In this document: positions 2,347 to 25,657 of the stretch, piece by piece
Numbering within the stretch: the first letter of the stretch is position 1
Layout of the letters: each line of letters starts with the position of its first letter
NCBI RefSeq assembly: GCF_030384885.1
Contig: NZ_CP128613.1
Source: Escherichia coli
GTDB lineage: Bacteria; Pseudomonadota; Gammaproteobacteria; Enterobacterales; Enterobacteriaceae
Length of the DNA stretch: 64,000 bases
Strand: one strand, 5' to 3'
Program-made: the position numbers and the translations under genes
Notes under the pieces: model-generated
Told to the model about the DNA's origin: nothing
What the model saw: only the letters and a program-made list of their open reading frames with translations
The model's database searches: none

Positions 2347-3397
2347 TCTCATACGGGATGGTGTTGCAGGCAGCGGCAACCTGTTCCAGCGTCTGGCCTG
2401 CGCCAATAAATTCCACCTTATCGCCCGCTGTCGGCGTGACGGCGCTGGCATCGACCATAAAGCTGTCCATACAAACCCGCCCCAATACCGGTAACCGCAC
2501 GCCGCGCCAGCATACGCCCGCCGGAGGACGCATATTTCGCGGAACGCCATCCGCGTAACCCGCGGATATCGTAGCGATACGCAGCGGACGCGTGGCGGTA
2601 ATCGTACTGCCATAGCCAACTGGCGTTCCCGCCGGGACATCCTGCACGCGCAGAATAGTTAGCGTCAGCGTAAAAGCCGGTTTTAGCGGCCTGGAAAACC
2701 ACGGCTGGGCGACGCCAAACAGCGCAATCCCCGGACGGCAGAGATCTTCCCGCCAACCTGGTTGCAAAAACATTCCGCAGGAGTTCGCCAGCGAAAATCG
2801 GCTGCTGGGGAAAACCGTTTTTGCCTGCTGGAATAGCGCGTGTTGCGCCACATTTAACGCATGATCCGGCCTGTCGGCGTTCGCCAGATGGCTGATGATA
2901 TAGTCCGGCGCAGGCCAGTTACGCTCACGAAATATCGCCGCCAGACGCATCAGTTGTTGCGGCATCACGCCCAGCCGCGACATACCGGAATCGAGCTGGA
3001 TCATCACCGCACGCCGCTGCTGGCGCGTTTCCAGTAACGTAAGCCACGCCATCACCTGGTCAATGGAATTGAGCAATGGCGTGATCTGCTGCGCGTAACA
3101 ATACGCCATCGCCTCCGGCATAACCCCATTAAGCACTACCACCATCGCATCAGTGGGCAGGATTTTACGCAGCGCCACGCCCTCCGAAAGCTGTGCCACA
3201 AAAAAGATCCGGCAGTTCGCCGCATACAGGGCGGGCGCAATCGCCTCCGCCCCCAGACCATAGGCATTGGCTTTCAACACCGCGCCACATTGCGCAGGGG
3301 CAACATGGCGCGCCAGCGTGCGATAATTATCGACGATGGCGGCGAGATTGACGCACATAACGCCGCACGCCGCCTGGATTTCAGTAGAAGTCATCAT
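2291..3397 (-). CDS. alanine racemase family protein (PLP-dependent)
   Basis: 368-aa ORF with PLP-lysine motif VLKANAYGLG typical of alanine racemases; start overlaps the stop of the upstream SHMT-like gene. Confidence 0.7.
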   Translation of the reverse strand: MMTSTEIQAACGVMCVNLAAIVDNYRTLARHVAPAQCGAVLKANAYGLGAEAIAPALYAANCRIFFVAQLSEGVALRKILPTDAMVVVLNGVMPEAMAYCYAQQITPLLNSIDQVMAWLTLLETRQQRRAVMIQLDSGMSRLGVMPQQLMRLAAIFRERNWPAPDYIISHLANADRPDHALNVAQHALFQQAKTVFPSSRFSLANSCGMFLQPGWREDLCRPGIALFGVAQPWFSRPLKPAFTLTLTILRVQDVPAGTPVGYGSTITATRPLRIATISAGYADGVPRNMRPPAGVCWRGVRLPVLGRVCMDSFMVDASAVTPTAGDKVEFIGAGQTLEQVAAACNTIPYEIMTRLGARFQCIMQPADA

Positions 3398-4632
3398 TGA
3401 TAAGACAACGGGTAGCGGTTGGTTAGTTGTATTACTTTTTGCTCAATATCGGCGCAAATGCCTGCGATATCTGACGAGTTGATGGCGAAAATGATTTCAC
3501 TTATCCAGTCAGCAATAAGCACAAAATCATCCGCCTTCATCCCACGCGTGGTGCAGGCCGCGCTGCCAATACGGACCCCGGAGGTAATCGACGGCGGCTG
3601 CGGATCGCCCGGCAGGGTGTTTTTATTGACCGTGATCCCCGCCAGTTCGAGAAAGTACTCCACCTGTGCGCCGGTTAACCCCTGCGGGCGCAGGTCGATA
3701 ATCCCCAGATGGCAGTCGGTGCCGCCCGTTAACAGCGTCAGACCGCGCTGCGCCAGTTGCTGGCACATCGCCTGCGCATTGTCGATAACCTACCCGGCGT
3801 AACGTTTAAATTCTGGTTGTAATGCCTCGCCAAGCGCCACCGCTTTCGCCGCGATAACGTGCATCAACGGCCCGCCCTGCAAACCGGGAAAGATGGCGCT
3901 GTCGATTTTTTTCGCAAGCCTGGCGTCATTGGTGAGGATCATGCCGCCGCGCGGCCCGCGCAACGTTTTATGCGTGGTGGTGGTGACCACATCAGCATAC
4001 GCCAGCGGCGAAGGAAAACAGCCGCCCGCCACCAGCCCGGCAAAGTGCGCCATATCCACCAGCAAAATGGCATCAACGGCATCGGCAATGCGGCGAAAAC
4101 GGGCAAAATCATAGTGGCGTGGATAAGCCGATCCTCCGGCAATAATTAACCGTGGGCGCTCGCGTAGCGCGATCATCTCGACCTCATCCATATCAATCAG
4201 GCCACTATGGGCATCGACGCCATAGTGAAAGGCGTTAAACCATTTGCCGGATTGATTGACCGGAGAACCGTGCGTGAGATGCCCGCCGCATTGCAGGCTC
4301 ATGCCAAGAATTTTGTCGCCGGGCTTCAGCAACGCCAGATAGACCGCCTGATTCGCCTGGCTGCCGGAGTGAGGCTGCACATTGACGTAACGCGCGCCAA
4401 AGAGCTGCTGCGCGCGGGTTATCGCCAGCATCTCAACCTCATCAATAAACTTACAGCCGCCGTAATAGCGATGCTGGTAATAACCTTCGGCGTATTTATT
4501 GGTTAACACCGACCCCTGCGCCGCGAGAACGGCGGGGCTTACGAAATTCTCCGAGGCAATCAGTTCCAGCGACTGCTGCTGGCGCTGTTGCTCCTGGTTA
4601 ATCAATGCAAAAAGTGGATCGTTATTTATCAT
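3394..4632 (-). pseudogene. serine hydroxymethyltransferase (GlyA-like) paralog interrupted by an in-frame TAG at 3790-3792
   Basis: ORFs 3790..4698 and 3394..3768 are in the same frame; both halves align to SHMT ([17 protein letters not shown]-lysine motif; GITVNKN); the stop sits where GlyA has a Gln in the YQQQV region. Confidence 0.65.
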
Positions 4633-4864
4633 GCGCTTCCCCCGCAAATTCATCATGCGATGATTTTCGCAGGGAAAACCTCGTCCGCACCCTGCCACTT
4701 TTTAGACTGAGCGCAGACCACCTATGTCGTTTTACTTAAAAGAAGAGGGAAGAAGGCTCCAGGCATCTCCATATGCGATTCTGGTTGGTAATACATCATA
4801 TTCCAGCTGCTCTTATCCGCCTACGTTATTGCATATACGGATAAGGCAGCCTCAATACGTACTT

Positions 4865-6550: not shown

Positions 6551-7678
6551 ATGTCAAATCTGTTTGCGATTAATGTCTGTAAAACGTTCGGTTGTCGAAA
6601 TTTGGGATTGGCCTCATCGGAAGATTACAGTTGGCCAGACTATAAACTGGGTTTTCCGGCACTGCACTGCCAGGCATGCGGAAGTTACCCCCCTTTGTTT
6701 GATGAACAACAATTTCGTGACTGGTTGTCAGTTCACATGACTGCGTGTGCCATAGAAACAGGGCATTTTTGTCCATCATGCTATTGTAAAGAAAAGATTT
6801 TTTATGGCCACAACCCGCAGGGAACACAACGCGTTCAATGCCGTTCATGCAAAAAAGTCTGGACTCCGAAACAGCAGCCAGCAAGAGAAATTACGTATCC
6901 CCAGTCCATTGAAACCGTTCAACTGTTCATGCCCTTTCAAGGAGCCAGCGCAGTACAAAAGCTCTATGTTTTAGTCAGTCTTGACGCCACTCGTGGCAAC
7001 ATCCTTCATCTCTCCACGAATTATACGCAACATCAGACAGGAGACAGTCTGCGGTACAGTTACAGAGGCAATACAGAACCAACTGAGCACCATAGCGATA
7101 TTGCGCAGAGGGTAGATATGCGTGAAGCACAATTCTTGCGCCGGAGCCAGTTCGATGAAATTCAGTATGGCAGTGCTGTGCTCAAGCGCAACGGCAAGGG
7201 AGCCATACTACGCCCGGTTATCACGGCACACGGGCATTTCAGAATACTGAAAATCCGCTTTCCACATGTCAAAACGCATATCATTTCACACGAATGTTTT
7301 CTGAGAGGCGCAATTATTACAGCCTGGGCAGATCAGTTCCGCCAACAACAAGGCGAACTTTGGTTCGTAGAGGAAGAAATCAGCGACCGTAATGCTGATA
7401 TTCCCTGGCATTTTCAGGGAACGACATACCATGGTTGGTGGCAAAATCAGTGGCAACGCTGGGGGCAGGGGAATAACAGCAAGATGGTCTGCCTGCTCAC
7501 AGGAGTCTCCTTAGAAAGGGGCGCAAATGTTTCTCTGGCAACCAGTCGTTGCTTTATCACATGGCTGACAGACCAACACGACTTTACCCAAAGCGCGTTA
7601 TTATCCGCAGGTCGCGTAACGAAAATGCTGACCTCACTGGCGTTAAAATACAATGAATCGCTCACTCCATCTTGTTAG
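6551..7678 (+). CDS. hypothetical protein with N-terminal Cys-rich zinc-ribbon (IS1 InsA-like / transposase-type zinc finger)
   Basis: 375-aa ORF; Cys pattern CPSCYC...QRVQCRSCKKVW resembles InsA-type zinc ribbons; the rest has no motif I recognise. Confidence 0.45.
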   Translation: MSNLFAINVCKTFGCRNLGLASSEDYSWPDYKLGFPALHCQACGSYPPLFDEQQFRDWLSVHMTACAIETGHFCPSCYCKEKIFYGHNPQGTQRVQCRSCKKVWTPKQQPAREITYPQSIETVQLFMPFQGASAVQKLYVLVSLDATRGNILHLSTNYTQHQTGDSLRYSYRGNTEPTEHHSDIAQRVDMREAQFLRRSQFDEIQYGSAVLKRNGKGAILRPVITAHGHFRILKIRFPHVKTHIISHECFLRGAIITAWADQFRQQQGELWFVEEEISDRNADIPWHFQGTTYHGWWQNQWQRWGQGNNSKMVCLLTGVSLERGANVSLATSRCFITWLTDQHDFTQSALLSAGRVTKMLTSLALKYNESLTPSC

Positions 7679-11121: not shown

Positions 11122-11135
11122 TAAAAAAATTATAA

Positions 11136-11166
11136 TGCCATTCATTCACTGAATGGCATTATTTTC
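11136..11166 (+). terminator. rho-independent terminator after nucleotidase paralog 3
   Basis: inverted repeat AATGCCATTCA-ttcac-TGAATGGCATT followed by a T-run. Confidence 0.6.
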
Positions 11167-11198: not shown

Positions 11199-12059
11199 AT
11201 GTGTATAAAAAAGCACGGGATAGCTTTATCGATTCTATTAATACCTTGCATTGGAAACGCTCAGAAAATTAAAAGTGAGGAAGGCTGGTTACATCAAAGC
11301 TTGAATGTCATTGGTCGCACAGACTCTCGCTTTGGCCCAAGGCTGACTAACGACCTCTACCCTGAATATACTGTAGCAGGAAGAAAAGACTGGTTTGATT
11401 TTTATGGTTATGTTGATCTACCAAAATTCTTTGGCGTCGGCAGTCACTATGATGTTGGGATCTGGGATGAGGGCTCACCACTATTTACGGAAATAGAACC
11501 TCGGTTTTCCATTGACAAATTGACCGGATTAAATCTTGCGTTCGGCCCTTTTAAAGAATGGTTCATTGCAAACAACTATGTCTATGATATGGGTGACAAC
11601 CAGTCATCCCGGCAAAGTACATGGTATATGGGGCTTGGTACAGATATCGACACGGGTCTACCAATTAAGCTTTCTGCCAATATATACGCCAAGTATCAGT
11701 GGCAAAACTATGGTGCCGCTAATGAAAATGAATGGGACGGATATCGATTCAAAATAAAATATAGCATTCCTCTTACCCATTTATTCGGAGGGCGATTGGT
11801 ATACAATAGTTTTACTAACTTTGATTTTGGATCCGATCTTGCGGACAAATCACACAATAATAAACGAACCAGTAATGCTATTGCTTCAAGCCATATCCTT
11901 TCCCTGCTATATGAACACTGGAAATTTGCATTTACACTACGTTATTTTCACAACGGTGGACAATGGAATGCTGGGGAGAAAGTTAACTTCGGAGATGGTC
12001 CATTTGAATTAAAAAACACAGGATGGGGAACCTATACTACTATTGGTTATCAATTTTAA
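11199..12059 (+). CDS. nucleoside-specific outer-membrane channel, Tsx family (paralog of tsx)
   Basis: 286-aa ORF with signal peptide; long conserved blocks shared with Tsx ([15 protein letters not shown]; [26 protein letters not shown]); ends in aromatic residue typical of beta-barrels. Confidence 0.85.
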
Positions 12060-12240
12060 ATCAGGTGATGTTTTAGATATTTTTACTTAATGCCATTTTG
12101 TAATTGTCATAAATAACTTCACCATTCACACTGTGAATTCATCGCTCAACACAAAAGCCCCCTTATTACCGGGGCACTGACCAAAGGCAAAATGACAATC
12201 AATCACCACCTCCGCAGGAGGTGGTTTAGAGGTGACAACA

Positions 12241-12268
12241 AAAGCTGGCAACTGCCAGCTTTTGTTCA
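12241..12268 (-). terminator. rho-independent terminator downstream of metL
   Basis: palindrome AAAAGCTGGCAACTGCCAGCTTTT followed by a T-run on the minus strand, just after the metL stop. Confidence 0.6.
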
Positions 12269-12275
12269 ATAATCA

Positions 12276-14708
12276 CTACAACAACTGCGCCAGACGGTTA
12301 ATATCCGACTGAATCGCCCCGGCGGTGACGTCGCGCCCTGCGCCTGGCCCACGGATCACCAGCGGGTTGTCGCGATACCAGCGGCTTTCGATGGCAAAGA
12401 CGTTATCGCACGGTAGTAGTGATGCCAGCGGATGGTCTTCTCGCACCGCTTCCACGCCTACTCGCGCTTTGCCGTTAGCATCGAAACGCGCCACGTAGCG
12501 CAACACCAGCCCCATTTCACGGGCCGCTTCCAACCGTTGTACCATCTGCTCATTAAGTTCATCGCCATTTTCAAAGAAATGGTCGATGCTGCCACCTTCG
12601 CAATGGGTTGGCACCAGTGATTCAACACGCACCTGGTCCGGTTCAATGTTGTAACCCGCTTCACGCGCCAGAATCACCAGCTTGCGCATCACATCTTTGC
12701 CGGAGAGGTCATCACGCGGGTCAGGTTCAGTTAAGCCCTGCTGCCACGCCTGATCCACCAGCTCAGTAAACGGCACGCTACCGTCGAATTGCAGGAACAG
12801 CCAGGAGAGCGTGCCGGAGAAGATCCCGCTGATCGACAAAATAGTGTCGCCGCTGTCGATCAGATCGCGCACGGTATGGTTGATCGGCAAACCTGCGCCG
12901 ACGGTGGCGTTGTATAGCCAGTGACGCCCGGTTTTTTCGAACGCGTCGTGGATCTGTCGATATTTATTGCTGTCGCTGGCTCCCGCCAGTTTGTTGGCAC
13001 TGATGACGTGGAAACCGTGGCTGGCGAAATCGAGATACTGATCAGCAAGCTGCTGGCTGGCAGTAACGTCCAGCACCACTAAATCATCATACGGATGGGC
13101 ACGCATCCACAGGAACAGCGACTCTTCATCCTGTTCGACGGCTTCATCATTAAAGAAGGCTAGCGCACGGCTGGCGTCCAGCCCGTCATAGCTCAACAGG
13201 CTGCGACGGCTGTCCACCACGCCTGCCAGCACAAATTCAAAGCCGGTGCGCGCCGAGAGCGTGCTCTGCTCACGGGCGAACAGTTCCAGCCAGCGGGAAC
13301 CGATATTGCCCTTACCGAACAATACCAGGCCGATGCGTTTTTCTGCGCGGAAGACGGACTGATGCAGCCCCTGAATCAGGCTTTCGGTAGGTCCGGTACG
13401 CAGTACTGCCACCAGGCTGATGCCGTCATCGGACTGCCAGGTAAATTCGACCGGCTGGCCTTTCAGTTGCTGCCAGAAGCGGTGGCAATGCAGCGGGTTA
13501 CGGGTGACGCCTGCACCAACCATCGCCACCAGCGCCAGCCCCTGACGCAGGCGCAGTTCGCCAGGTAATCCTGCTTCGTCGAGGATTTTCAGCGCACTAT
13601 CGGCCACTTCCGAGGTGTAGCAAAATTGCAGCAACTGGCGATCGTTATGCACGCCAACCGCCAGTGGGCGCACCTGAGCACGTTTCAGGATTTGGTCGAT
13701 CTCTTTATGCGCCAGTTTGAAATCCTGACTGGCGGGCACCTGAAACTCAATCAAACAGACATCATCGTGGCTGGTGACAATACGCGCGCCAGTACCGGAA
13801 GCCAGCACGCGTTCAATGCGCGTGGAACCTTGATCCGGCGTGTAGCTACAGCGCAGCTGCAGGTCGATTTCACTGCCAGAAACTGGCTGTAAAGTACGGG
13901 CGTGAAGAACGGGGGCCGCCAGACGCGCCAGTTCACTGGCTTCATCAAGACGCAGCAATGGCAGCAGGCAGGCATCTTTCACTTTACGCGGGTCAGCGCT
14001 GTATACCCCGGCGACGTCGCTCCAGATGGTTACGCGGGAAACTCCCGCCAGCGCACCGATTTGTGTCGCGGAATAGTCGGAACCGTTACGCCCCAGCAGC
14101 ACCGTTTCACCGGCGTTGTTACGGCTGATAAACCCGGTCACCACCAGACGTTTGCCCGGATGTTGTACCAGTAGCTGTTGCAGCAACGGGTAAGAAAGCC
14201 CTTCATCAACCTGCGGCTGCGCGGCGCGTTCAGCGCGTAAAAACTCGCGGGCATCAAGCCAGGCCGCAGGCAATCCTTGTTGATTAAGTACCGCAGACAT
14301 CAGGCGCGCCGACCACACTTCACCGTGGCCCACCACTTCCGCATACACCGCATCGTTAATACCGCTGTCGAGCAGCGCCGCCAGGCGTTCCAGATCGCTG
14401 ACAAAAGCGCTAATGAGGCTATCGGCTTCTTCGGCGGGTAGCAGGCCGCTAATCAGATCGCACTGATAGCGACGCAGCGTTTGTTGAACCTGATGCGCAG
14501 AGAGACGATCGGTCTGGCTTAGTTTCAACCAGTTAATCAACTGGTTAGTGGTGCTACCGGCGGCGGAAACCACCATCATATCGTCAGGCTGAGAGTACTC
14601 CGCCATAATGCCCGCGACACGCAAATAACACTTCACATCAGCCAGACTACTGCCACCAAATTTATGCAGTTGACGACCTTTCGCCCCTGCCTGCGCAATC
14701 ACACTCAT
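12276..14708 (-). CDS. metL: bifunctional aspartokinase II / homoserine dehydrogenase II
   Basis: 810-aa ORF recognised as MetL; immediately downstream of metB as in the metBL operon. Confidence 0.95.
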   Translation of the reverse strand: MSVIAQAGAKGRQLHKFGGSSLADVKCYLRVAGIMAEYSQPDDMMVVSAAGSTTNQLINWLKLSQTDRLSAHQVQQTLRRYQCDLISGLLPAEEADSLISAFVSDLERLAALLDSGINDAVYAEVVGHGEVWSARLMSAVLNQQGLPAAWLDAREFLRAERAAQPQVDEGLSYPLLQQLLVQHPGKRLVVTGFISRNNAGETVLLGRNGSDYSATQIGALAGVSRVTIWSDVAGVYSADPRKVKDACLLPLLRLDEASELARLAAPVLHARTLQPVSGSEIDLQLRCSYTPDQGSTRIERVLASGTGARIVTSHDDVCLIEFQVPASQDFKLAHKEIDQILKRAQVRPLAVGVHNDRQLLQFCYTSEVADSALKILDEAGLPGELRLRQGLALVAMVGAGVTRNPLHCHRFWQQLKGQPVEFTWQSDDGISLVAVLRTGPTESLIQGLHQSVFRAEKRIGLVLFGKGNIGSRWLELFAREQSTLSARTGFEFVLAGVVDSRRSLLSYDGLDASRALAFFNDEAVEQDEESLFLWMRAHPYDDLVVLDVTASQQLADQYLDFASHGFHVISANKLAGASDSNKYRQIHDAFEKTGRHWLYNATVGAGLPINHTVRDLIDSGDTILSISGIFSGTLSWLFLQFDGSVPFTELVDQAWQQGLTEPDPRDDLSGKDVMRKLVILAREAGYNIEPDQVRVESLVPTHCEGGSIDHFFENGDELNEQMVQRLEAAREMGLVLRYVARFDANGKARVGVEAVREDHPLASLLPCDNVFAIESRWYRDNPLVIRGPGAGRDVTAGAIQSDINRLAQLL

Positions 14709-14710
14709 TT

Positions 14711-15871
14711 TTACCCCTTGTTTGCAGCCCGGAAGCCATTTTCCAGGTCGGCAATTAAATCTTCGCCATCTTCAATACCGGTGGAGATACGCAGCAGCGT
14801 CTCGGAGATCCCGGCGGCAGCACGCGCTTCTGGTGCCATGCCTGCATGTGTCATGGTTGCGGCGTGAGAGATTAAACTTTCCACTCCCCCTAATGATTCC
14901 GCCAGCGTAAACAACGACAACCCGCCCAGGAAACGACGCAGCGTCTGCTCATCGCCATCCAGTTCAAAACTCAACATTGCGCCAAAGCCTTTTTGCTGGC
15001 GCGCGGCAATTTCATGCCCCTGATTTTCCGGCAGCGACGGGTGATACAGTTTTTTCACTAACGGCTGGGTTTGCAGATATTTCACTATCGCCTGCGCGTT
15101 GCGCTGCGCCAGCTCCATACGCGGCACCAGCGTTCGCAAACCGCGCAGCAACAAATAACTGTCAAACGCGCCGCCCGTCACGCCAATATTGTTTGCCCAC
15201 CAGGCCAGTTCGGTGACAACGTCCGGGTCTTTAGCAATCACCACGCCAGCCACTACATCTGAGTGACCGTTCAGATATTTCGTGCATGAATGCAACACCA
15301 GATCGGCACCTAATGCCAGTGGATTTTGTAATGCCGGGCTTAAGAAGGTGTTATCCACCACGCTCACCGCCCCGACTTCCCTTGCCAGATGGCAGATTTT
15401 CGCAATATCCACGACGCGTAACAATGGATTACTTGGGCTTTCTACCAGTACTAGTTTGGGTTTTTCTGCCAGTGCAGCCTGCAATGCCTGCTCATCTCCT
15501 TGATCAACAAACAGCACGCGATAACAGCCGCGTTTCGCCAGGCTGTCGAACAGGCGATAGCTGCCGCCGTAGCAGTCGTGCGGCGCAACCAGCAAATCGC
15601 CAGGTTTCAAAAAGACGGTCGTTACCAGGTGGATGGCAGACATGCCGGTATTAGTCAGCACTGCACCAGCACCGCCTTCCAGTTCAGCCAGCGCACGCTG
15701 AACCACATCGCGCGTTGGGTTGCCGCGACGCGAGTAATCATGCGCGCGCGGTTCATTAAATCCGGTAAAGTTATAGGTGCTGGAAAGATGGATGGGAGGG
15801 ACAACGCAACCATACTGTTCGTCGTCATTTAACCCGCTACGCACTGCAATGGTGGCCTGTTTACGCGTCAT
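14711..15871 (-). CDS. metB: cystathionine gamma-synthase
   Basis: recognised as MetB (MTRKQATIAVRSGLNDDEQYG...); the track ORF extends further upstream, start moved to the Met matching the 386-aa protein. Confidence 0.95.
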   Translation of the reverse strand: MTRKQATIAVRSGLNDDEQYGCVVPPIHLSSTYNFTGFNEPRAHDYSRRGNPTRDVVQRALAELEGGAGAVLTNTGMSAIHLVTTVFLKPGDLLVAPHDCYGGSYRLFDSLAKRGCYRVLFVDQGDEQALQAALAEKPKLVLVESPSNPLLRVVDIAKICHLAREVGAVSVVDNTFLSPALQNPLALGADLVLHSCTKYLNGHSDVVAGVVIAKDPDVVTELAWWANNIGVTGGAFDSYLLLRGLRTLVPRMELAQRNAQAIVKYLQTQPLVKKLYHPSLPENQGHEIAARQQKGFGAMLSFELDGDEQTLRRFLGGLSLFTLAESLGGVESLISHAATMTHAGMAPEARAAAGISETLLRISTGIEDGEDLIADLENGFRAANKG

Positions 15872-15926
15872 GTGATGAAGTTCCCTGGGCTTGGTCGGTG
15901 AAATGTCAGGCACCAGAGTAAACATT

Positions 15927-15966
15927 GTGTTAATGGACGTCAATACATCTGGACATCTAAACTTCT
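15927..15966. promoter_or_regulatory. tandem met boxes (MetJ operator) in the metJ / metBL divergent control region
   Basis: tandem 8-bp repeats GGACGTCA ATACATCT GGACATCT AAACTTCT, matching the AGACGTCT met-box consensus. Confidence 0.6.
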
Positions 15967-16147
15967 TTGCGTATAGATTGAGCAAATCCCAAATAGCCGT
16001 TAAAATTATATGCATTATCACGCCGACAGGTGCATTACACGATGTCACGGTAACGCCTGTACGGTAAACTATGCGGGTTTACGGTCAGTACCCACATAAA
16101 TTGTGTGGTCTGATCTCAATTTATTGACGAAGAGGATTAAGTATCTC

Positions 16148-17136: not shown

Positions 17137-17250
17137 ATGATGAAAAAAATAATTCCCGCCGTAGTCTGTTTGTTGCTTTGTAGTTGCACGACCTTTCCGC
17201 AAGCTGTCGCTCCGGCAGGGAAAGATTACGAAAGCCCGCTCCCAGCAAGG
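17137..17250 (+). other. lipoprotein-like ORF fragment running into the ISAs1 element
   Basis: ORF 17137..17514 begins MMKKIIPAVVCLLLCSCTT (signal peptide with lipobox-like LCSC) and then overlaps the 3' end of the transposase gene on the opposite strand. Confidence 0.25.
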
Positions 17251-18480
17251 ACTGACGCCAGATACTTTCTGTCCATGGCTGCTTTTCGCATCTTACGTCT
17301 TAACCCTGCCTTGAATACCTTATCATTCGTTAAAATATTAATAGCGATGTGCCGTATCCCTGAAAATAATTCTGCGGCGTTTCCTCTTCGTATTTTGCAG
17401 TCGTCTTCATTCATTACCACGTCCAGACGCCAGTGCAGCTTATTCTCCACGTGCCAGTGGTTTCGGATTGCTGTGGCGAACTTTTCTGCGGTTAAATCAG
17501 CAGAACTGATATAATATCTGACCGTCATTTCTGGCTCTTTCTTTTGTTCTGCTATTATTGACCGAAAGGAGAATGCCACGCATAATTTCTTCAGTCCTTT
17601 CCATTCAAACGTGAAATCAATAAGTTCATCACGGACATCGCAAACAATATGAAGACGGATTTCTTCTCTGCCGTGACTCTTTTCACTCATTGCGTAACTG
17701 TCATGCTCTGGATTATTTAATTCTTTCAGCGGAAATTTTTCCTCGAAGGCTTTATTTAGCCGCCCCTGGTTTCCTTTTACAGCGAATACATAATCACCGC
17801 CCTGTTTTTGTATCTTCTCTGCAATATCTTTCTGGCAACCCATCGCATCAGTTGTGATGATTTTTCCTTTAATATCCAGCATGTTAAGAAGTTCAGGGAT
17901 AGCTGTAATTTCATTGGATTTCTCATCCGTCCTGATCTGTCCGATGACCAGACTGTGCATTGTTGAGAATGCACTAATGACATGAATCGCTCCCCTGCGG
18001 CGACTCTTGTCATAAGAATGCCGGAGTGTTTTTCCATCAATTGCGATGACGTCTTTATCATCTGAAGTATGGCAATCTCGCATCCAGTTAATAAAGCACT
18101 CGTGAAATTTTGAAGGACTGATACAGGATACAACTCTGGCGATGGTATCGTGAACAGGAATACCATTTTCAAAATCACCATATTGTTTTAAAAAATCGCG
18201 ATGTGCTTCCCCAAAATCCTCTATATGTTCCCAGCCTTCTGCACCAGAAATAACGGCGCAAATAGTCAACAGTAGAATATCCGATAATTTATGTTCCACT
18301 TTCCAGGTTTGTCTGTAATCGGGGATAATAGAAATATGTTCCATCAATTTTTTAAGTTCCATTCTTTTCTCCTTAATTATGTAAGGAGTATTTGATCATG
18401 TATAAGCAATAAAAAAACAGCTTCAGGCAATGAGGAATATCTCAATTTTTAAACATAAAATGCGAATTGTTTAGTACAAA
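17140..18480 (-). mobile_element. ISAs1-family insertion sequence (H-repeat element); ends approximate
   Basis: single transposase ORF filling a segment of about 1.3 kb, typical of H-rpt elements; terminal repeats not determined. Confidence 0.6.
17226..18362 (-). CDS. ISAs1-family transposase (H-repeat-associated protein)
   Basis: 378-aa ORF recognised as the H-repeat (H-rpt) protein found in Rhs elements. Confidence 0.85.
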
Positions 18481-18489
18481 AAAGCAGCG

Positions 18490-19100
18490 TTAAGTGAGTA
18501 GGCCACCGGAACCTCCCCGACAGCCTCTCGCAGAACCGTACGTGAAACTCTCGCTTCATACGGCTCCCGTCAGGCAAACGCGCTTCCTGGTCCTGCTTTC
18601 CAGTGGGCAAACAACTCCGGCTTCTCTTTTGACAGCCTTTCCATTAGCTGACACGCCTTCGTCTTTCTATACCGCAGGGTTTTATATTTCTTTCTCGCCC
18701 ACGCAATCAGCGTCAGATTAATATATCTGCATACTTTCTTCATCGCTGATTTGTGGTATCTCGCGTAATAATTCAGCCACCCCAATATTATCGGATTCAG
18801 CCACTTCGCAATATCTTCGAGACTCATCTCCACCCTGCGTCTGATCCACAGTTTCCTGAGTTTTCCAATCATGCCTTCGGGTTTACTCATCTCACTGTAT
18901 CTCACATAGGATCAGATCTCGTCTGATCGTTCCCCCTGCGCTCACTACCATGGCTCTTTACCACAGCAGCCGGGGTTGTTTGGGACCGACTTCCGACAGC
19001 AGATCCCGGTGGGCCTGCCACCATCTCTTCACAAGCTTATGCTTATTACATGCAAAACGTCCCGTTTTGCATCTTTGTGCCTACGGCACACCGTGATCTT
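18490..19100 (-). mobile_element. 5'-truncated group II intron remnant (maturase C-terminus plus RNA domains V and VI)
   Basis: ORF 18570..18905 carries a maturase-like motif (WLNPIILGWLNYYARY); downstream on the same strand, about 18532-18566, is GAGCCGTATGAAGCGAGAGTTTCACGTACGGTTCTG, which folds as a domain-V-like hairpin. Confidence 0.6.
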
Positions 19101-19111
19101 TCCCTGTCGGC

Positions 19112-19320
19112 ATGTTGACCACTGACGAATGGGGTAGTTACGCTAGAGAGTTACCAAAGGAGAAGCATCTGACTGGTAAGATTTTTACTCAGCATATTGA
19201 GCGTAACAATCTGACCCTGAGAACCCGAATCAAACGTCTGGCCCGCAGAACCATCTGTTTCTCGCGTTCTGTAGAACTTCATGAAAAAGTCATCGGTGCT
19301 TTTATCGAAAATATATGTTC
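19112..19320 (+). pseudogene. IS1-family transposase (InsB-like) C-terminal fragment
   Basis: ORF 19112..19426 contains TDEWGSYARELPK...FTQHIERNNLTLRTRIKRLARRTICFSRSVELHEKVIG, similar to the C-terminal part of IS1 InsB; no N-terminal part. Confidence 0.6.
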
Positions 19321-19395
19321 TACTAATTGGAGTCATCACCCTTCTGATGAGCTTTCCTTGGATGATTACCAGACTGAATACATAGCCAAAGATTT

Positions 19396-19719
19396 TTACC
19401 TCATTCTGCTTTTTTTTCTCAAATGACATATATTATATTTTACATCATATTCATAGGCATATGACATTCCCCCGCCCCCCATTATGTCATTGTGGGTTGA
19501 TGTTGGGCTTTCATAAAAAAATACATCTTTTTTTGAACTAGCATTAATTATATTTACTTTATATATTAAAATATTTTCTCCATCTGGAAATATTTTAGCC
19601 ACACAATATAAAGCAGCCAAATCCGAATTACTTAAAAATATATTGTCATCACTCATAACTCCAGCCATTAAATGACTGGAGACTAAAGCAAGGAAATAAC
19701 AACATTGTATTGCCTTCAT
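19396..19719 (-). CDS. putative immunity protein for the adjacent Rhs C-terminal toxin
   Basis: about 107 aa from internal Met (MKAIQCCYFLALVSSHLMAGV...), hydrophobic signal-peptide-like N-terminus; start codon lies 1 nt after the toxin stop with an AAGGGAG RBS; very AT-rich. Confidence 0.5.
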   Translation of the reverse strand: MKAIQCCYFLALVSSHLMAGVMSDDNIFLSNSDLAALYCVAKIFPDGENILIYKVNIINASSKKDVFFYESPTSTHNDIMGGGGMSYAYEYDVKYNICHLRKKSRMR

Positions 19720-19720
19720 T

Positions 19721-20275
19721 TTAATTACTCCCTTGCCTGATAATTGTAACTCCATTCCCTTTAGCTTTGGGATTATATTTTAGATAGGTGTTATTTGGTG
19801 TTCCCAAGTAACTACTGTATTCTTTTTTTCCCATTCCATTCATATAAGAATTCGTTAAATCTTTGCTTGAAAAATTTAGACTATCATAAACATCATTTTC
19901 TTTTGTTACTTTATTTCCTTTATCGTCAGAGTAAAAACCGTGAGTGTGATAATCGCCTACTCTCTCTGAACCTTCAGGGCATTTTATATTTCGCAAGTCT
20001 ACACTATCATTATCATTTGAACTTATCGGATTCATGGGGAAATATTCACCTTGCTTCTTACATATTAGTCCACCATATTCTTTATTCTCGTTAATTGATT
20101 CTCCATTACACATTGCCAATGCAAATATTCCAATATCATCTATATTTTTTGATTTAAATTCATATAATCCTAATGGATCCATGCCATTCACCGGGCTCAG
20201 CGGATATGTATACAGGTTCCATCCCCCCTTCAGCCCAATCGGATCCTGAGTGATATACCGCCCCTGTAACCGTCC
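19721..20275 (-). CDS. Rhs C-terminal tip: end of Rhs core (DPxGL motif) plus variable toxin domain
   Basis: reading frame encodes ...[35 protein letters not shown] followed by about 145 aa of low-GC sequence with conserved Cys/His (GDYHTHG); DPxGL marks the core/toxin boundary in Rhs proteins; no in-frame ATG at the 5' end. Confidence 0.6.
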
Positions 20276-20664
20276 TCACCGGGAAACAGGTGCTCAAAAT
20301 ACAGGCTTCTGCCGCCGTTATCACTGAGTATCAGAGTGTTATCGCGCAGCTGCAAGCGGATATCCGCAGGCATTTTCCAGCCGGGGCCGAGGCTCCCCAC
20401 CGGCGCGGGCGTTTTTGTCCGGTAACTGCTGTAGGTGCGGGAGAGGATGAACGGCAGCGGGCCGGGCAGGGCAAGGTCGGTTTCGCCGGGAAGGACCTTC
20501 GCACCGAGCAGCGGATTGACCGGATGGCCGGACGTCACCCCGCCGGGGCACACCGAACAGGCCACGCCGGTGGGGGCACCAATACGTACCCCGGCAGAAC
20601 CCTGGACAATGGGGCCACCATACTGCGTCATGTCGCCCTGACGCGCCGCCGGTTTTCCGCTCAT
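20230..20664 (-). pseudogene. Rhs N-terminal (PAAR-like) fragment, out of frame with the C-terminal tip
   Basis: 144-aa ORF MSGKPAARQGDMTQYGGPIVQGSAGVRIGAPTGVACSVCPGG... matches the conserved N-terminus of E. coli Rhs proteins for about 125 residues, then terminates. Confidence 0.7.
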
Positions 20665-20786
20665 CGTAAAATCCTTTTAAAATAAATAAGAACCAGAAGC
20701 CTAGCGCCAGTCAACAACAGGAAATGATAATGAGTTAACACCCCGGAATGTTTCAGAATTTATAAAAGGCAAATTACAGGCACAAA

Positions 20787-20815
20787 AAAAGCGCCGTGCG
20801 GCGCTTTTTTCGGAA
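20787..20815 (-). terminator. rho-independent terminator downstream of rpmE
   Basis: hairpin AAAAAAAGCGCCGTGCGGCGCTTTTTT immediately after the rpmE stop. Confidence 0.65.
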
Positions 20816-20823
20816 ATCCGGTC

Positions 20824-21075
<252 letters not shown>

Positions 21076-21079
21076 CTAA

Positions 21080-23437
<2,358 letters not shown>

Positions 23438-23592
23438 TGCGCAAACGATGCGAGGCGGATCGAAAAATTCAATATTCATCACACTTTTCATGAAAATTCT
23501 GTAACCGTTTTCACGCGCTATCTGCTAAAAATGTTGCCGATGTGAAGTAAACATGGAAGTAGTACGCCTGCCGTGCCGGGCGAGGAGTGAGT

Positions 23593-24618
23593 GTGAAAGC
23601 GAAGAAGCAGGAAACTGCCGCGACCATGAAAGACGTTGCCCTGAAGGCAAAAGTCTCTACAGCGACCGTCTCCCGAGCATTAATGAATCCCGATAAAGTC
23701 TCCCAGGCCACCCGTAATCGGGTTGAAAAAGCGGCCCGGGAAGTAGGTTATTTGCCGCAGCCTATGGGGCGCAACGTCAAACGTAATGAATCCCGCACCA
23801 TTCTGGTGATTGTCCCGGATATCTGCGATCCCTTCTTTAGCGAAATTATTCGCGGTATCGAAGTTACGGCGGCAAATCACGGATATCTGGTGCTGATTGG
23901 CGACTGTGCGCATCAAAATCAGCAGGAAAAAACCTTTATCGATTTGATTATCACCAAGCAAATTGATGGCATGTTGCTGCTGGGTTCAAGGCTGCCGTTT
24001 GATGCCAGCATTGAGGAACAGCGTAATCTGCCGCCGATGGTGATGGCGAACGAATTTGCGCCGGAACTGGAGCTGCCTACAGTTCATATCGACAATCTGA
24101 CCGCCGCATTTGATGCAGTAAATTATTTATATGAGCAAGGTCATAAACGGATTGGCTGTATAGCCGGTCCCGAAGAGATGCCGCTGTGTCACTACCGCCT
24201 GCAAGGCTACGTTCAGGCGCTGCGTCGCTGCGGCATTATGGTTGATCCGCAATACATCGCCCGGGGCGACTTCTCCTTTGAAGCCGGAAGCAAAGCGATG
24301 CAACAGCTGCTTGCTCTTCCGCAACCGCCTACTGCTGTCTTCTGCCATAGCGATGTAATGGCGCTCGGCGCACTTTCTCAGGCAAAACGCCAGGGGCTGA
24401 AAGTCCCGGAAGACCTTTCCATAATCGGTTTTGATAACATCGACCTGACGCAATTTTGTGATCCGCCGCTGACAACCATCGCGCAGCCGCGTTACGAAAT
24501 CGGTCGGGAAGCTATGCTGTTATTGCTTGATCAAATGCAGGGGCAACACGTTGGCAGTGGCTCTCGTTTAATGGACTGCGAACTTATCATCCGGGGATCA
24601 ACGCGCGCGTTACCTTAA
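23593..24618 (+). CDS. cytR: LacI-family transcriptional repressor CytR
   Basis: recognised as CytR; probable GTG start giving 341 aa. Confidence 0.9.
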   Translation: MKAKKQETAATMKDVALKAKVSTATVSRALMNPDKVSQATRNRVEKAAREVGYLPQPMGRNVKRNESRTILVIVPDICDPFFSEIIRGIEVTAANHGYLVLIGDCAHQNQQEKTFIDLIITKQIDGMLLLGSRLPFDASIEEQRNLPPMVMANEFAPELELPTVHIDNLTAAFDAVNYLYEQGHKRIGCIAGPEEMPLCHYRLQGYVQALRRCGIMVDPQYIARGDFSFEAGSKAMQQLLALPQPPTAVFCHSDVMALGALSQAKRQGLKVPEDLSIIGFDNIDLTQFCDPPLTTIAQPRYEIGREAMLLLLDQMQGQHVGSGSRLMDCELIIRGSTRALP

Positions 24619-24709
24619 AGTAAACCTTTAAGACTGCCGTGACTGGTCAAAGGCCCGCCGCTTAAGTAACATGGCGGGCTGACGAACGAATAAATACAGC
24701 GAAACGATA

Positions 24710-25657
24710 GTGGCACAACGAGATTATGTACGCCGCAGCCAACCGGCACCTTCGCGGCGAAAAAAAAGCACCTCACGGAAAAAGCAACGAAATCTGCCTG
24801 CGGTTTCTCCCGCAATGGTCGCTATTGCTGCCGCCGTTCTTGTGACCTTTATCGGTGGTCTGTACTTCATTACGCATCACAAGAAAGAAGAGTCCGAGAC
24901 ACTGCAAAGCCAGAAAGTGACCGGAAACGGATTACCACCGAAACCAGAAGAACGCTGGCGCTACATTAAAGAGCTGGAAAGTCGCCAGCCGGGTGTGCGT
25001 GCACCAACAGAACCTTCTGCCGGTGGTGAAGTGAAAACGCCGGAGCAACTGACACCAGAACAACGTCAGCTTCTTGAACAAATGCAGGCTGATATGCGCC
25101 AGCAACCAACGCAACTGGTTGAAGTCCCATGGAATGAACAGACGCCGGAACAGCGTCAGCAAACGCTTCAACGTCAGGCACAACAGCGTCAGATTCAGGC
25201 GGCTCAACAGCAGCAGCGTCAGGCTGAGCAGGCATATCAACAACCGCGTACCGCGCAAGCGCAGCAACCACCGCGCCAGACGCAGCAGACTCGCCAGGCG
25301 GCTCAGCAGCCGTACCAGGATCTCCTGCAAACGCCAGCACACACTGCCGCGGCGCAGCCGAAGTCACAGCAAGTCGCGCCTGTTAGCCGGGCCGCTGACG
25401 CGCCAAAACAGACGGCGGAGAAAAAAGACGAGCGGCGCTGGATGGTACAGTGCGGTTCGTTCCGAGGCGCGGAACAGGCAGAGACGGTACGTGCTCAGCT
25501 GGCGTTCGAAGGCTTTGACTCGAAAATTACCACCAACAATGGCTGGAATCGTGTGGTGATTGGCCCGATTAAAGGGAAAGAAAATGCCGACGGCACCCTG
25601 AATCGCCTGAAGATGGCGGGTCATACAAACTGTATTCGACTCGCTACCGGGGGTTGA
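24710..25657 (+). CDS. ftsN: cell division protein FtsN
   Basis: recognised as FtsN (GTG start; TM segment, Gln-rich linker, C-terminal SPOR domain). Confidence 0.9.
   Translation: MAQRDYVRRSQPAPSRRKKSTSRKKQRNLPAVSPAMVAIAAAVLVTFIGGLYFITHHKKEESETLQSQKVTGNGLPPKPEERWRYIKELESRQPGVRAPTEPSAGGEVKTPEQLTPEQRQLLEQMQADMRQQPTQLVEVPWNEQTPEQRQQTLQRQAQQRQIQAAQQQQRQAEQAYQQPRTAQAQQPPRQTQQTRQAAQQPYQDLLQTPAHTAAAQPKSQQVAPVSRAADAPKQTAEKKDERRWMVQCGSFRGAEQAETVRAQLAFEGFDSKITTNNGWNRVVIGPIKGKENADGTLNRLKMAGHTNCIRLATGG

Follow-up and report, generated by a model that had tools for sequence, protein, structure and literature searches.

In IS200, the inverted repeat at nucleotides (nt) 12 to 34 of the left end acts as a bidirectional terminator and keeps transcription from outside away from tnpA, whose own transcription starts near nt 40 (PMC4513863). 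Terminators borne at the 5′ side of insertion sequences (ISs), also called "mobile attenuators," block incoming transcription (PMC2965389). In Borrelia, solo IS200/IS605 end hairpins are found near gene 3′ ends (Delihas 2011, PMC3184786). The interval between metL and metF has a published 7.8-kb form, GR 31 "metL..metF," which ExPEC and APEC strains have in common (PMC12928451).

Here we describe the spacer between metL and a tsx paralogue in a 64-kb stretch of Escherichia coli DNA (64,000 nt, the window). We think it highly probable that this spacer is the metL 3′ flank of an island haplotype, that one of its two hairpins (HP2) is a terminator and the other (HP1) belongs to a 40-nt IS200/IS605 stub, and that the boundary with K-12 lies at the metL stop codon.

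Two hairpins between a tsx paralogue and metL

We took the annotation from NZ_CP027579.1 (E. coli 2013C-4282, locus L001), in which window position 1 corresponds to L001 2102. The features at issue are as follows.

11199..12059, plus strand: tsx paralogue, last gene of the island; a 286-aa ORF that NZ_CP027579.1 annotates as Tsx
12060-12275, no strand: the convergent spacer between the tsx paralogue and metL, exactly 216 bp, all of it without a K-12 counterpart
12157-12175, minus strand: a third hairpin, GCCCC / GGGGC with a 9-nt loop, followed by TTTTGTG on the minus strand (from sequence inspection)
12205-12225, minus strand: HP1, arms 12205-12213 and 12217-12225, 9 bp, 100% complementary, 3-nt loop
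12237-12266, no strand: HP2, arms 12237-12250 and 12253-12266, 14 bp, 100% complementary, a perfect palindrome
12276..14708, minus strand: metL, an 810-aa ORF that is also annotated; its stop codon, TAG at 12276-12278, is where K-12 homology starts

The tsx-like ORF at 11199..12059 matches the Pfam family Channel_Tsx (E = 4.9e-70). An earlier note on this DNA had reported two inverted repeats between its stop codon and that of metL, and both are indeed present and fold far better than shuffled sequence. The HP1 sequence given there, CCACCTCCGCAGGAGGTGG, lies at 12206-12224. The HP2 palindrome, AAAAGCTGGCAACTGCCAGCTTTT, is likewise real, but its true position is 12240-12263, a few bases from the "about 12241-12268" first assigned to it. 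Folded as RNA, the minus strand of the 89-nt stretch with both hairpins reaches −40.9 kcal/mol and the plus strand −38.6, compared with −19.7 and −16.9 for shuffles (z about −7), and none of 200 shuffles folded equally well. When the hairpins were folded singly, HP2 had a z of −4.7 to −6.4, and HP1 came to about −16 kcal/mol with a z of about −4. At 0 mismatches, the HP1 pattern occurs once within the 64-kb window.

The third hairpin, which the earlier note did not list, looks like a terminator in the metL direction. A further 13-bp hairpin, ATAATGCCATTCA...TGAATGGCATTAT, sits at 11132-11162, flanked on either side by T-runs, between the third 5′-nucleotidase gene and the tsx paralogue and looks like an internal terminator or attenuator. 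An Rfam search of 12060-12275 gave no match at E ≤ 10. We rejected as spurious a 47-aa ORF on the minus strand (12126..12269) that runs over both hairpins, as it has a TTG start and lies wholly within terminator and stub DNA.

The variable region starts at the metL stop codon

The earlier note stated that metF follows metL in K-12, which is the case, with a 348-bp spacer between the two genes. It also took the DNA to the left of metL to be extra in the window strain. An alignment to K-12, named beforehand as what might refute this, showed no counterpart of that DNA in K-12. The breakpoint, however, had been put near ~12200, which is 76 bp off. The K-12 match begins at window position 12277, the second base of the metL stop codon (TAG here, TAA in K-12), and the break is therefore at 12276/12277. 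Since K-12 homology ends at this stop codon, both hairpins are in strain-specific DNA. The far end of the island is beyond the window (L001 1716/1717); there, K-12 homology ceases 159 bp before the metF ATG. Altogether, 12.66 kb stands in for 190 bp of K-12 sequence between metL and the metF promoter. Within those 190 bp (L002 3811-4000) are a REP-like palindrome, GCCGGATTCGTCGTAAACGCTTAATCCGGCC, and a hypothetical ORF of 44 aa, which is annotated.

When a 601-bp probe was compared with 5426 complete E. coli genomes, its metL part matched in every genome except one, and the spacer together with tsx matched in only 660. The metL-metF locus is built of modules, and at least four structural types of it can be told apart.

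Type A, K-12: only the 348-bp spacer between metF and metL
Type B, IHE3034: five genes, 7.8 kb between metF and metL
Type C, this window: nine genes, 12.66 kb between metF and metL
Type D, isolate 624: two genes, the second of which overlaps the metL 3′ end by 37 bp

Upstream of metF, the points at which these four types diverge lie within ~10 bp of each other; on the other side, divergence sets in directly after the metL stop codon. The GC content of the island ranges from 37% to 60%. On its metF side, the 12.66-kb version has a hypothetical gene, a PLP-dependent aminotransferase family gene, an alanine racemase gene, and a serine hydroxymethyltransferase pseudogene; this pseudogene (~3394-4653; L001 5495-6754) contains an internal stop and lies beside the alanine racemase and aminotransferase family genes. 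In isolate 624, the Cys-rich hypothetical gene runs 37 bp into the metL 3′ end on the opposite strand, and therefore no terminator hairpin follows metL. Its product (L006 3906-5036) is 73% identical to the protein encoded at window 6551-7678 and has several CxxC motifs and no Pfam match. To look for the island in other species, we also scanned the genome collection with the Tsx paralogue, which returned only loci with tsx homologues at 58 to 68% identity. Neither metL, the 5′-nucleotidase gene, nor the hypothetical gene is near those homologues, and the IS hairpin is absent from their loci.

Per 200-bp window, metL is unusually polymorphic between E. coli strains, at 91 to 97% identity among K-12, strain 150, IHE3034, and isolate 624, and the values follow no clean gradient. 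MetL of the window and of isolate 624 have the same protein accession. Most of metB (14711-16048) is 97.5 to 100% identical, apart from two divergent 200-bp windows at 89 to 95%, and metJ is also 97.5 to 100% identical. Farther on, the yiiX-rpmE interval (~17200-25200; L001 19327-27294) contains an ISAs1-family transposase gene, an ltrA group II intron reverse transcriptase gene, an IS1 fragment, and genes for an RHS core protein and its dsORF; in IHE3034, yiiX is followed directly by rpmE.

Because the hairpins adjoin the boundary of the variable region, it is tempting to see them as att-like or recombination sites at which a site-specific recombinase integrated the island beside metL. The earlier note had proposed looking for att-like sequences or direct repeats at this boundary, but the two ends of the island share no 8-mer or longer, direct or inverted. 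Nor is any integrase or recombinase gene annotated in the island, which has metL and metF as its neighbors and carries no integration machinery. Moreover, the K-12 breakpoint is 10 nt beyond HP2, at the stop codon, and in the four haplotypes that we aligned this same stop codon is abutted by three different sequences. We give integration at these hairpins hardly any credence.

HP1 is the left-end hairpin of an IS200/IS605-family element

A sensitive search with the spacer showed that 12198-12244 alone recurs elsewhere, at ~194 plasmid sites and some chromosomal sites. It comprises two features.

12198..12237, minus strand: IS stub, corresponding to nt 1-40 of an IS200/IS605-family (IS200-group) left end
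12238..12243, minus strand (read from 12243 to 12238): TTTTGT, by sequence both the T-tract of HP2 and the IS insertion target

In IS numbering, nt 1 is at 12237 (or 12236, given a 1-nt ambiguity), nt 40 is at 12198, and HP1 covers nt 13 to 33. Read on the minus strand from 12243 to 12198, the sequence is TTTTGTTGTCACCTCTAAACCACCTCCTGCGGAGGTGGTGATTGAT, which shares 41 of 46 positions with the left end of an intact IS in E. coli CUPF09 (score 67, compared with 18 ± 2 for shuffles). Another locus, L104, has a flank identical to that of the window site.

Intact copies, in which a stub-like sequence lies just upstream of an IS200/IS605-family tnpA, were found on an IncX1 plasmid (L011), on a Vibrio plasmid (L009), in E. 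coli N2456 (L014), and in E. coli CUPF09 between mdh and degS (L013), a genome with nine copies. Comparison with these copies shows that the identity covers the non-stem flanks as well, namely, 12 nt before the stem and 8 nt after it, and in the Vibrio copy a compensatory change from T-A to G-C preserves the hairpin. The stub thus has a subterminal hairpin whose conserved flank bases stand at a fixed distance from the tip. There is no tnpA in or beside 12198-12237, according to the ORF list and the annotation, and no right-end terminal hairpin in 12060-12197. The stub is therefore a remnant and not an IS. The third hairpin (12157-12175) was tried as the inner hairpin of an IS right end and rejected, as its local alignment scores of 17 to 24 are within the range of shuffles (18 ± 2.2; maximum, 30).

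On this reading, HP1 is neither a dedicated terminator of the island gene nor part of the junction, the two possibilities that the earlier note raised for it, nor an att-like site. We also considered that HP1 might be a terminator or regulatory hairpin that the island brought with the tsx paralogue, its IS likeness being convergent or captured. HP1 does lie in the tsx 3′ untranslated region (UTR) and is stable on the plus strand (−16 kcal/mol). However, neither convergence nor capture sits well with identity that reaches 12 nt 5′ and 8 nt 3′ of the stem, and these 40 nt also make up the tip of mobile units not present at empty sites. In addition, the plus-strand U-tract is poor, and the hairpin decays in the major island allele. 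We regard a tsx-borne origin as very improbable.

On both strands, the sequence 3′ of the stem is poor in U (plus strand, TTTAGAGG; minus strand, GATTGATTGT). In the commoner allele, found in about 550 of the 660 carriers, the HP1 stem has one compensatory change and one mismatch; the mismatch argues against strong selection on HP1, and suggests that there is little or none. Because both island alleles carry the stub, it is old and would predate their split. No tsx-metL spacer without the stub was found among the 5426 E. coli genomes, and with a synthetic stub-less query, all of the best matches carried the 40 nt, aligning in two pieces that spanned 341 nt. Unannotated 40-nt IS200-family footprints of this kind at island borders can be mistaken for att sites or regulatory hairpins.

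HP2 as a predicted two-way terminator

Folded as RNA from either strand, HP2 has a stem of 13 bp, a loop of 4 nt, and an energy of −21 to −23.5 kcal/mol, and UUUUGUU comes after it. In the DNA, an A-tract, a GCTGGC/GCCAGC core, and a T-tract follow one another. HP2 begins 10 nt past the metL stop codon and is 178 nt past the tsx stop codon. A GC-rich stem-loop and U-tract just past a stop codon is the layout of an intrinsic terminator. The segment 12233-12290 is identical between the window and IHE3034 alleles, although the spacer otherwise differs by 7% (93% identical overall). Judged by sequence features, HP2 is a two-way rho-independent terminator common to the convergent metL (minus strand) and tsx paralogue (plus strand), and we infer that it stops both transcripts in vivo. 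As the metL terminator proposed in the earlier note, it thus has every expected sequence feature, but it would not be the metL terminator of K-12, because the K-12 sequence at that place is unrelated and folds weakly.

Could HP2 instead be a REP-like repeat, or a palindrome to which a protein binds? Its 14-bp arms do make it a perfect palindrome, and the counterpart region of K-12 does contain REP-like sequence. On the other hand, the A-tract, GC core, and T-tract of HP2 are laid out as in two-way terminators, its stem is single-copy in E. coli genomes and bears no resemblance to the REP-like sequence of K-12, and HP2 was chosen as a target by an IS family that is sited mostly at terminators (see below). 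A non-terminator role for HP2 therefore seems to us quite improbable. Searching for REP or BIME elements likewise led to no candidate: no second copy of the HP2 stem was found in E. coli genomes, within the spacer only the IS-derived 12198-12244 is repeated, and the REP-like sequence belongs to the K-12 haplotype.

The parent IS and its preference for terminators

The transposase of the intact elements is of the Y1 type (PF01797, E = 5e-40; NF033573, 153 bits against a cutoff of 55), and the parent IS is about 630 bp long with tnpA as its only gene. We determined the IS ends from the mdh-degS site, which is filled in L013 and empty in L015. The IS begins TGTTATCCC... and ends ...GGAGGTGGTCTTTTAC, and it inserts after TTTTTTGT with no target duplication and a 1-nt ambiguity; the empty site reads TTTTTTGT/TTTGAGC, where the slash marks the insertion point. 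The relatives of the stub accordingly have no terminal inverted repeats, make no target-site duplication, and insert 3′ of a short specific sequence. Rfam searches of the parent IS and related loci gave nothing significant, including no match to the IS200 RNA STnc490 in the 5′ UTR; one run on related loci returned a weak partial STnc490 match on the palindromic stem (13 bits, E = 3.4). Lacking this match, the parent IS is a different member of the IS200 group, a relative of IS200 rather than IS200 itself.

Where does this family insert? We scanned metagenome contigs with the exact left-end hairpin pattern, which yielded 89 loci with 68 distinct upstream flanks; as an exact stem was required, the sample represents close lineages. 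Terminators were called with a simple script of our own under a strict rule (a perfectly paired stem, 5 bp or longer and including 3 or more GC pairs; a loop of 3 to 8 nt; and a T-run abutting the tip). Intrinsic terminators were present at the IS tip in 50 of the 68 distinct sites, compared with 76 of 1533 control TTTT[AG]T sites on the same contigs (5%; odds ratio, 53; p = 9e-45), and several of the 18 sites that failed the strict rule are terminators with a bulge. The final six bases of the flank, exactly at the IS tip, were TTTTAT in 33 of 68 and TTTTGT in 12 of 68 (45 of 68 together). The IS has the same orientation as the terminated transcript and follows the T-tract at a fixed offset. 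This preference supports HP2 as a genuine terminator oriented toward metL transcription, and HP1 as an arrival.

Other derivatives of the parent IS were also seen. In E. coli EC6622, a ~235-bp derivative without tnpA but with left and right ends, MITE-like in form, lies between queD and dpdD (L004 ~2810-3045), after the dpdD terminator in the Dpd (7-deazaguanine DNA modification) island. A left-end remnant of ~115 bp is fixed between genes for a ProQ/FinO-family protein and an ars-type permease (pSMS35_130; L003 2931-3047); more than 400 plasmids from E. coli, Salmonella, and Klebsiella carry it, with identities of 99% or higher. Finally, one locus (L121 ~1255-1320) has a tandem partial duplication of the left end, with nt 1 to 38 followed by a second copy from nt 3, which looks as if one copy had inserted into the GATTGT of another's left end.

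A recurrent 40-nt stub

Among 77 distinct elements with the left end, 66 run on as IS sequence. At six independent loci, however, the IS stops at exactly nt 40 (GATTGAT/T), with unrelated DNA after it: the metL site, L097, L098/L140, L141, L144, and L150. Two further loci stop at nt 38 and nt 41, and L164 and L170 were also entered with the stub loci. Position 40 is 8 nt after the stem, and the right-end terminus (TCTTTTAC/) is equally far from the right-end stem, which has the same sequence. An identical end at six unrelated loci makes random truncation less likely, and we infer that a specific process made the stub. TnpA may have used the left-end hairpin in a "right-end mode," leaving either a 40-nt mini-element or the footprint of an aberrant excision. 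If there was such a process, the DNA to the left of 12198 would be the original flank of the terminator, and HP1 would not be a scar of island assembly.

HP1 could, alternatively, mark the junction at which the tsx module met the metL flank, a full IS after the metL terminator having been truncated by the arrival of the island or by a deletion. The IS homology does stop abruptly at 12198, followed by unrelated DNA that leads to tsx, and the structural types of this modular locus, at least four in number, have the same outer limits. Yet random truncation would not be expected to give the same nt-40 end at unrelated loci with unrelated right flanks, and the stub is followed by a T, as are 30 of the 32 right flanks of intact copies. 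We therefore consider a junction unlikely.

We return to the model of a resident terminator with an IS stub, which can be set out as a series of events. The 216-bp spacer would be the 3′ flank that belongs to the island-bearing metL-metF haplotype, and HP2 would be a resident two-way terminator, there before any IS arrived. A tnpA-only IS200/IS605-family element would then have entered the metL sense strand two bases past the T-tract of HP2, at a site predicted to have read ...GCCAGCTTTTGT/TGTCATTTTGCC... before the insertion. All of the IS save its first 40 nt would later have been lost. HP1 would be what remains of the subterminal left-end hairpin, the recognition target of the Y1 transposase. 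By analogy with the equivalent IS200 hairpin, it could be at most a weak back-up terminator.

It is also possible, though we put it forward tentatively and with some doubt, that the stub did not arise by decay but is the signature of an undescribed behavior in an IS200-group lineage, which would combine homing to terminator T-tracts with the leaving or spreading of a discrete 40-nt, single-hairpin unit. A terminator hairpin with its T-run might then mimic the IS right end (a hairpin plus TCTTTTAC), and TnpA might take the left-end hairpin for both ends, cutting 12 nt 5′ and 8 nt 3′ of the stem. If so, the 40-nt unit would be a REP-like minimal transposable unit seeded at terminators. The lineage would then be a clean natural example of a single-strand transposase guided to its targets by structure, and its footprints would be one way for extra hairpins to build up at the 3′ ends of genes. 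In the literature that we searched, with older subscription papers mostly outside it, we found a description neither of the recurrent 40-nt unit nor of terminator targeting by IS200-group elements, and we claim novelty for neither. The most relevant older work on such targeting is reportedly that of Odaert from 1998, on IS1541 insertions.

Comparison with known systems

Each component of the spacer is of a known kind: a published variable region, a two-way terminator, and an IS200/IS605 end hairpin without a transposase. Our analysis moves the island boundary to the metL stop codon and explains both hairpins by these known kinds of element. The 7.8-kb GR 31 has the same four genes beside metL in the same position, the tsx paralogue and three UshA-like 5′-nucleotidases (PMC12928451). 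The window version differs in being 12.66 kb long, with four extra genes on the metF side. In the parts of that paper that we searched, neither the hairpins nor the IS stub is mentioned.

HP2 resembles known two-way terminators between convergent genes in its GC-rich core stem, 4-nt loop, upstream A-tract, and downstream T-tract; K-12, in contrast, has a different and much weaker-looking sequence after metL. The stub is close to IS200 in several respects. Its hairpin is at nt 13 to 33, compared with nt 12 to 34 in IS200, and its intact relatives encode a Y1 (HUH) TnpA, lack terminal inverted repeats and target duplication, and have left-end and right-end hairpins with the same stem. It differs from IS200 in that the window has only 40 nt, without tnpA or a right end, and in that its parent IS is ~630 bp long rather than 707 bp.

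As with the solo hairpins of Borrelia, transposase-less IS ends persist here beside gene 3′ ends. Unlike those hairpins and the mobile attenuators, however, the stub has a fixed length of 40 nt, recurs at unrelated loci, and is located at a terminator T-tract. A further parallel comes from group IIC introns, which insert after intrinsic terminators, as Robart, Seo and Zimmerly reportedly found in 2007. In both cases, a mobile element homes to a terminator stem-loop and T-tract, in the orientation of the terminated transcript. The difference is in the machinery, as a group IIC intron is a retroelement with an RNA-based mechanism, whereas the IS lineage here is a single-strand DNA transposon with a Y1 transposase.
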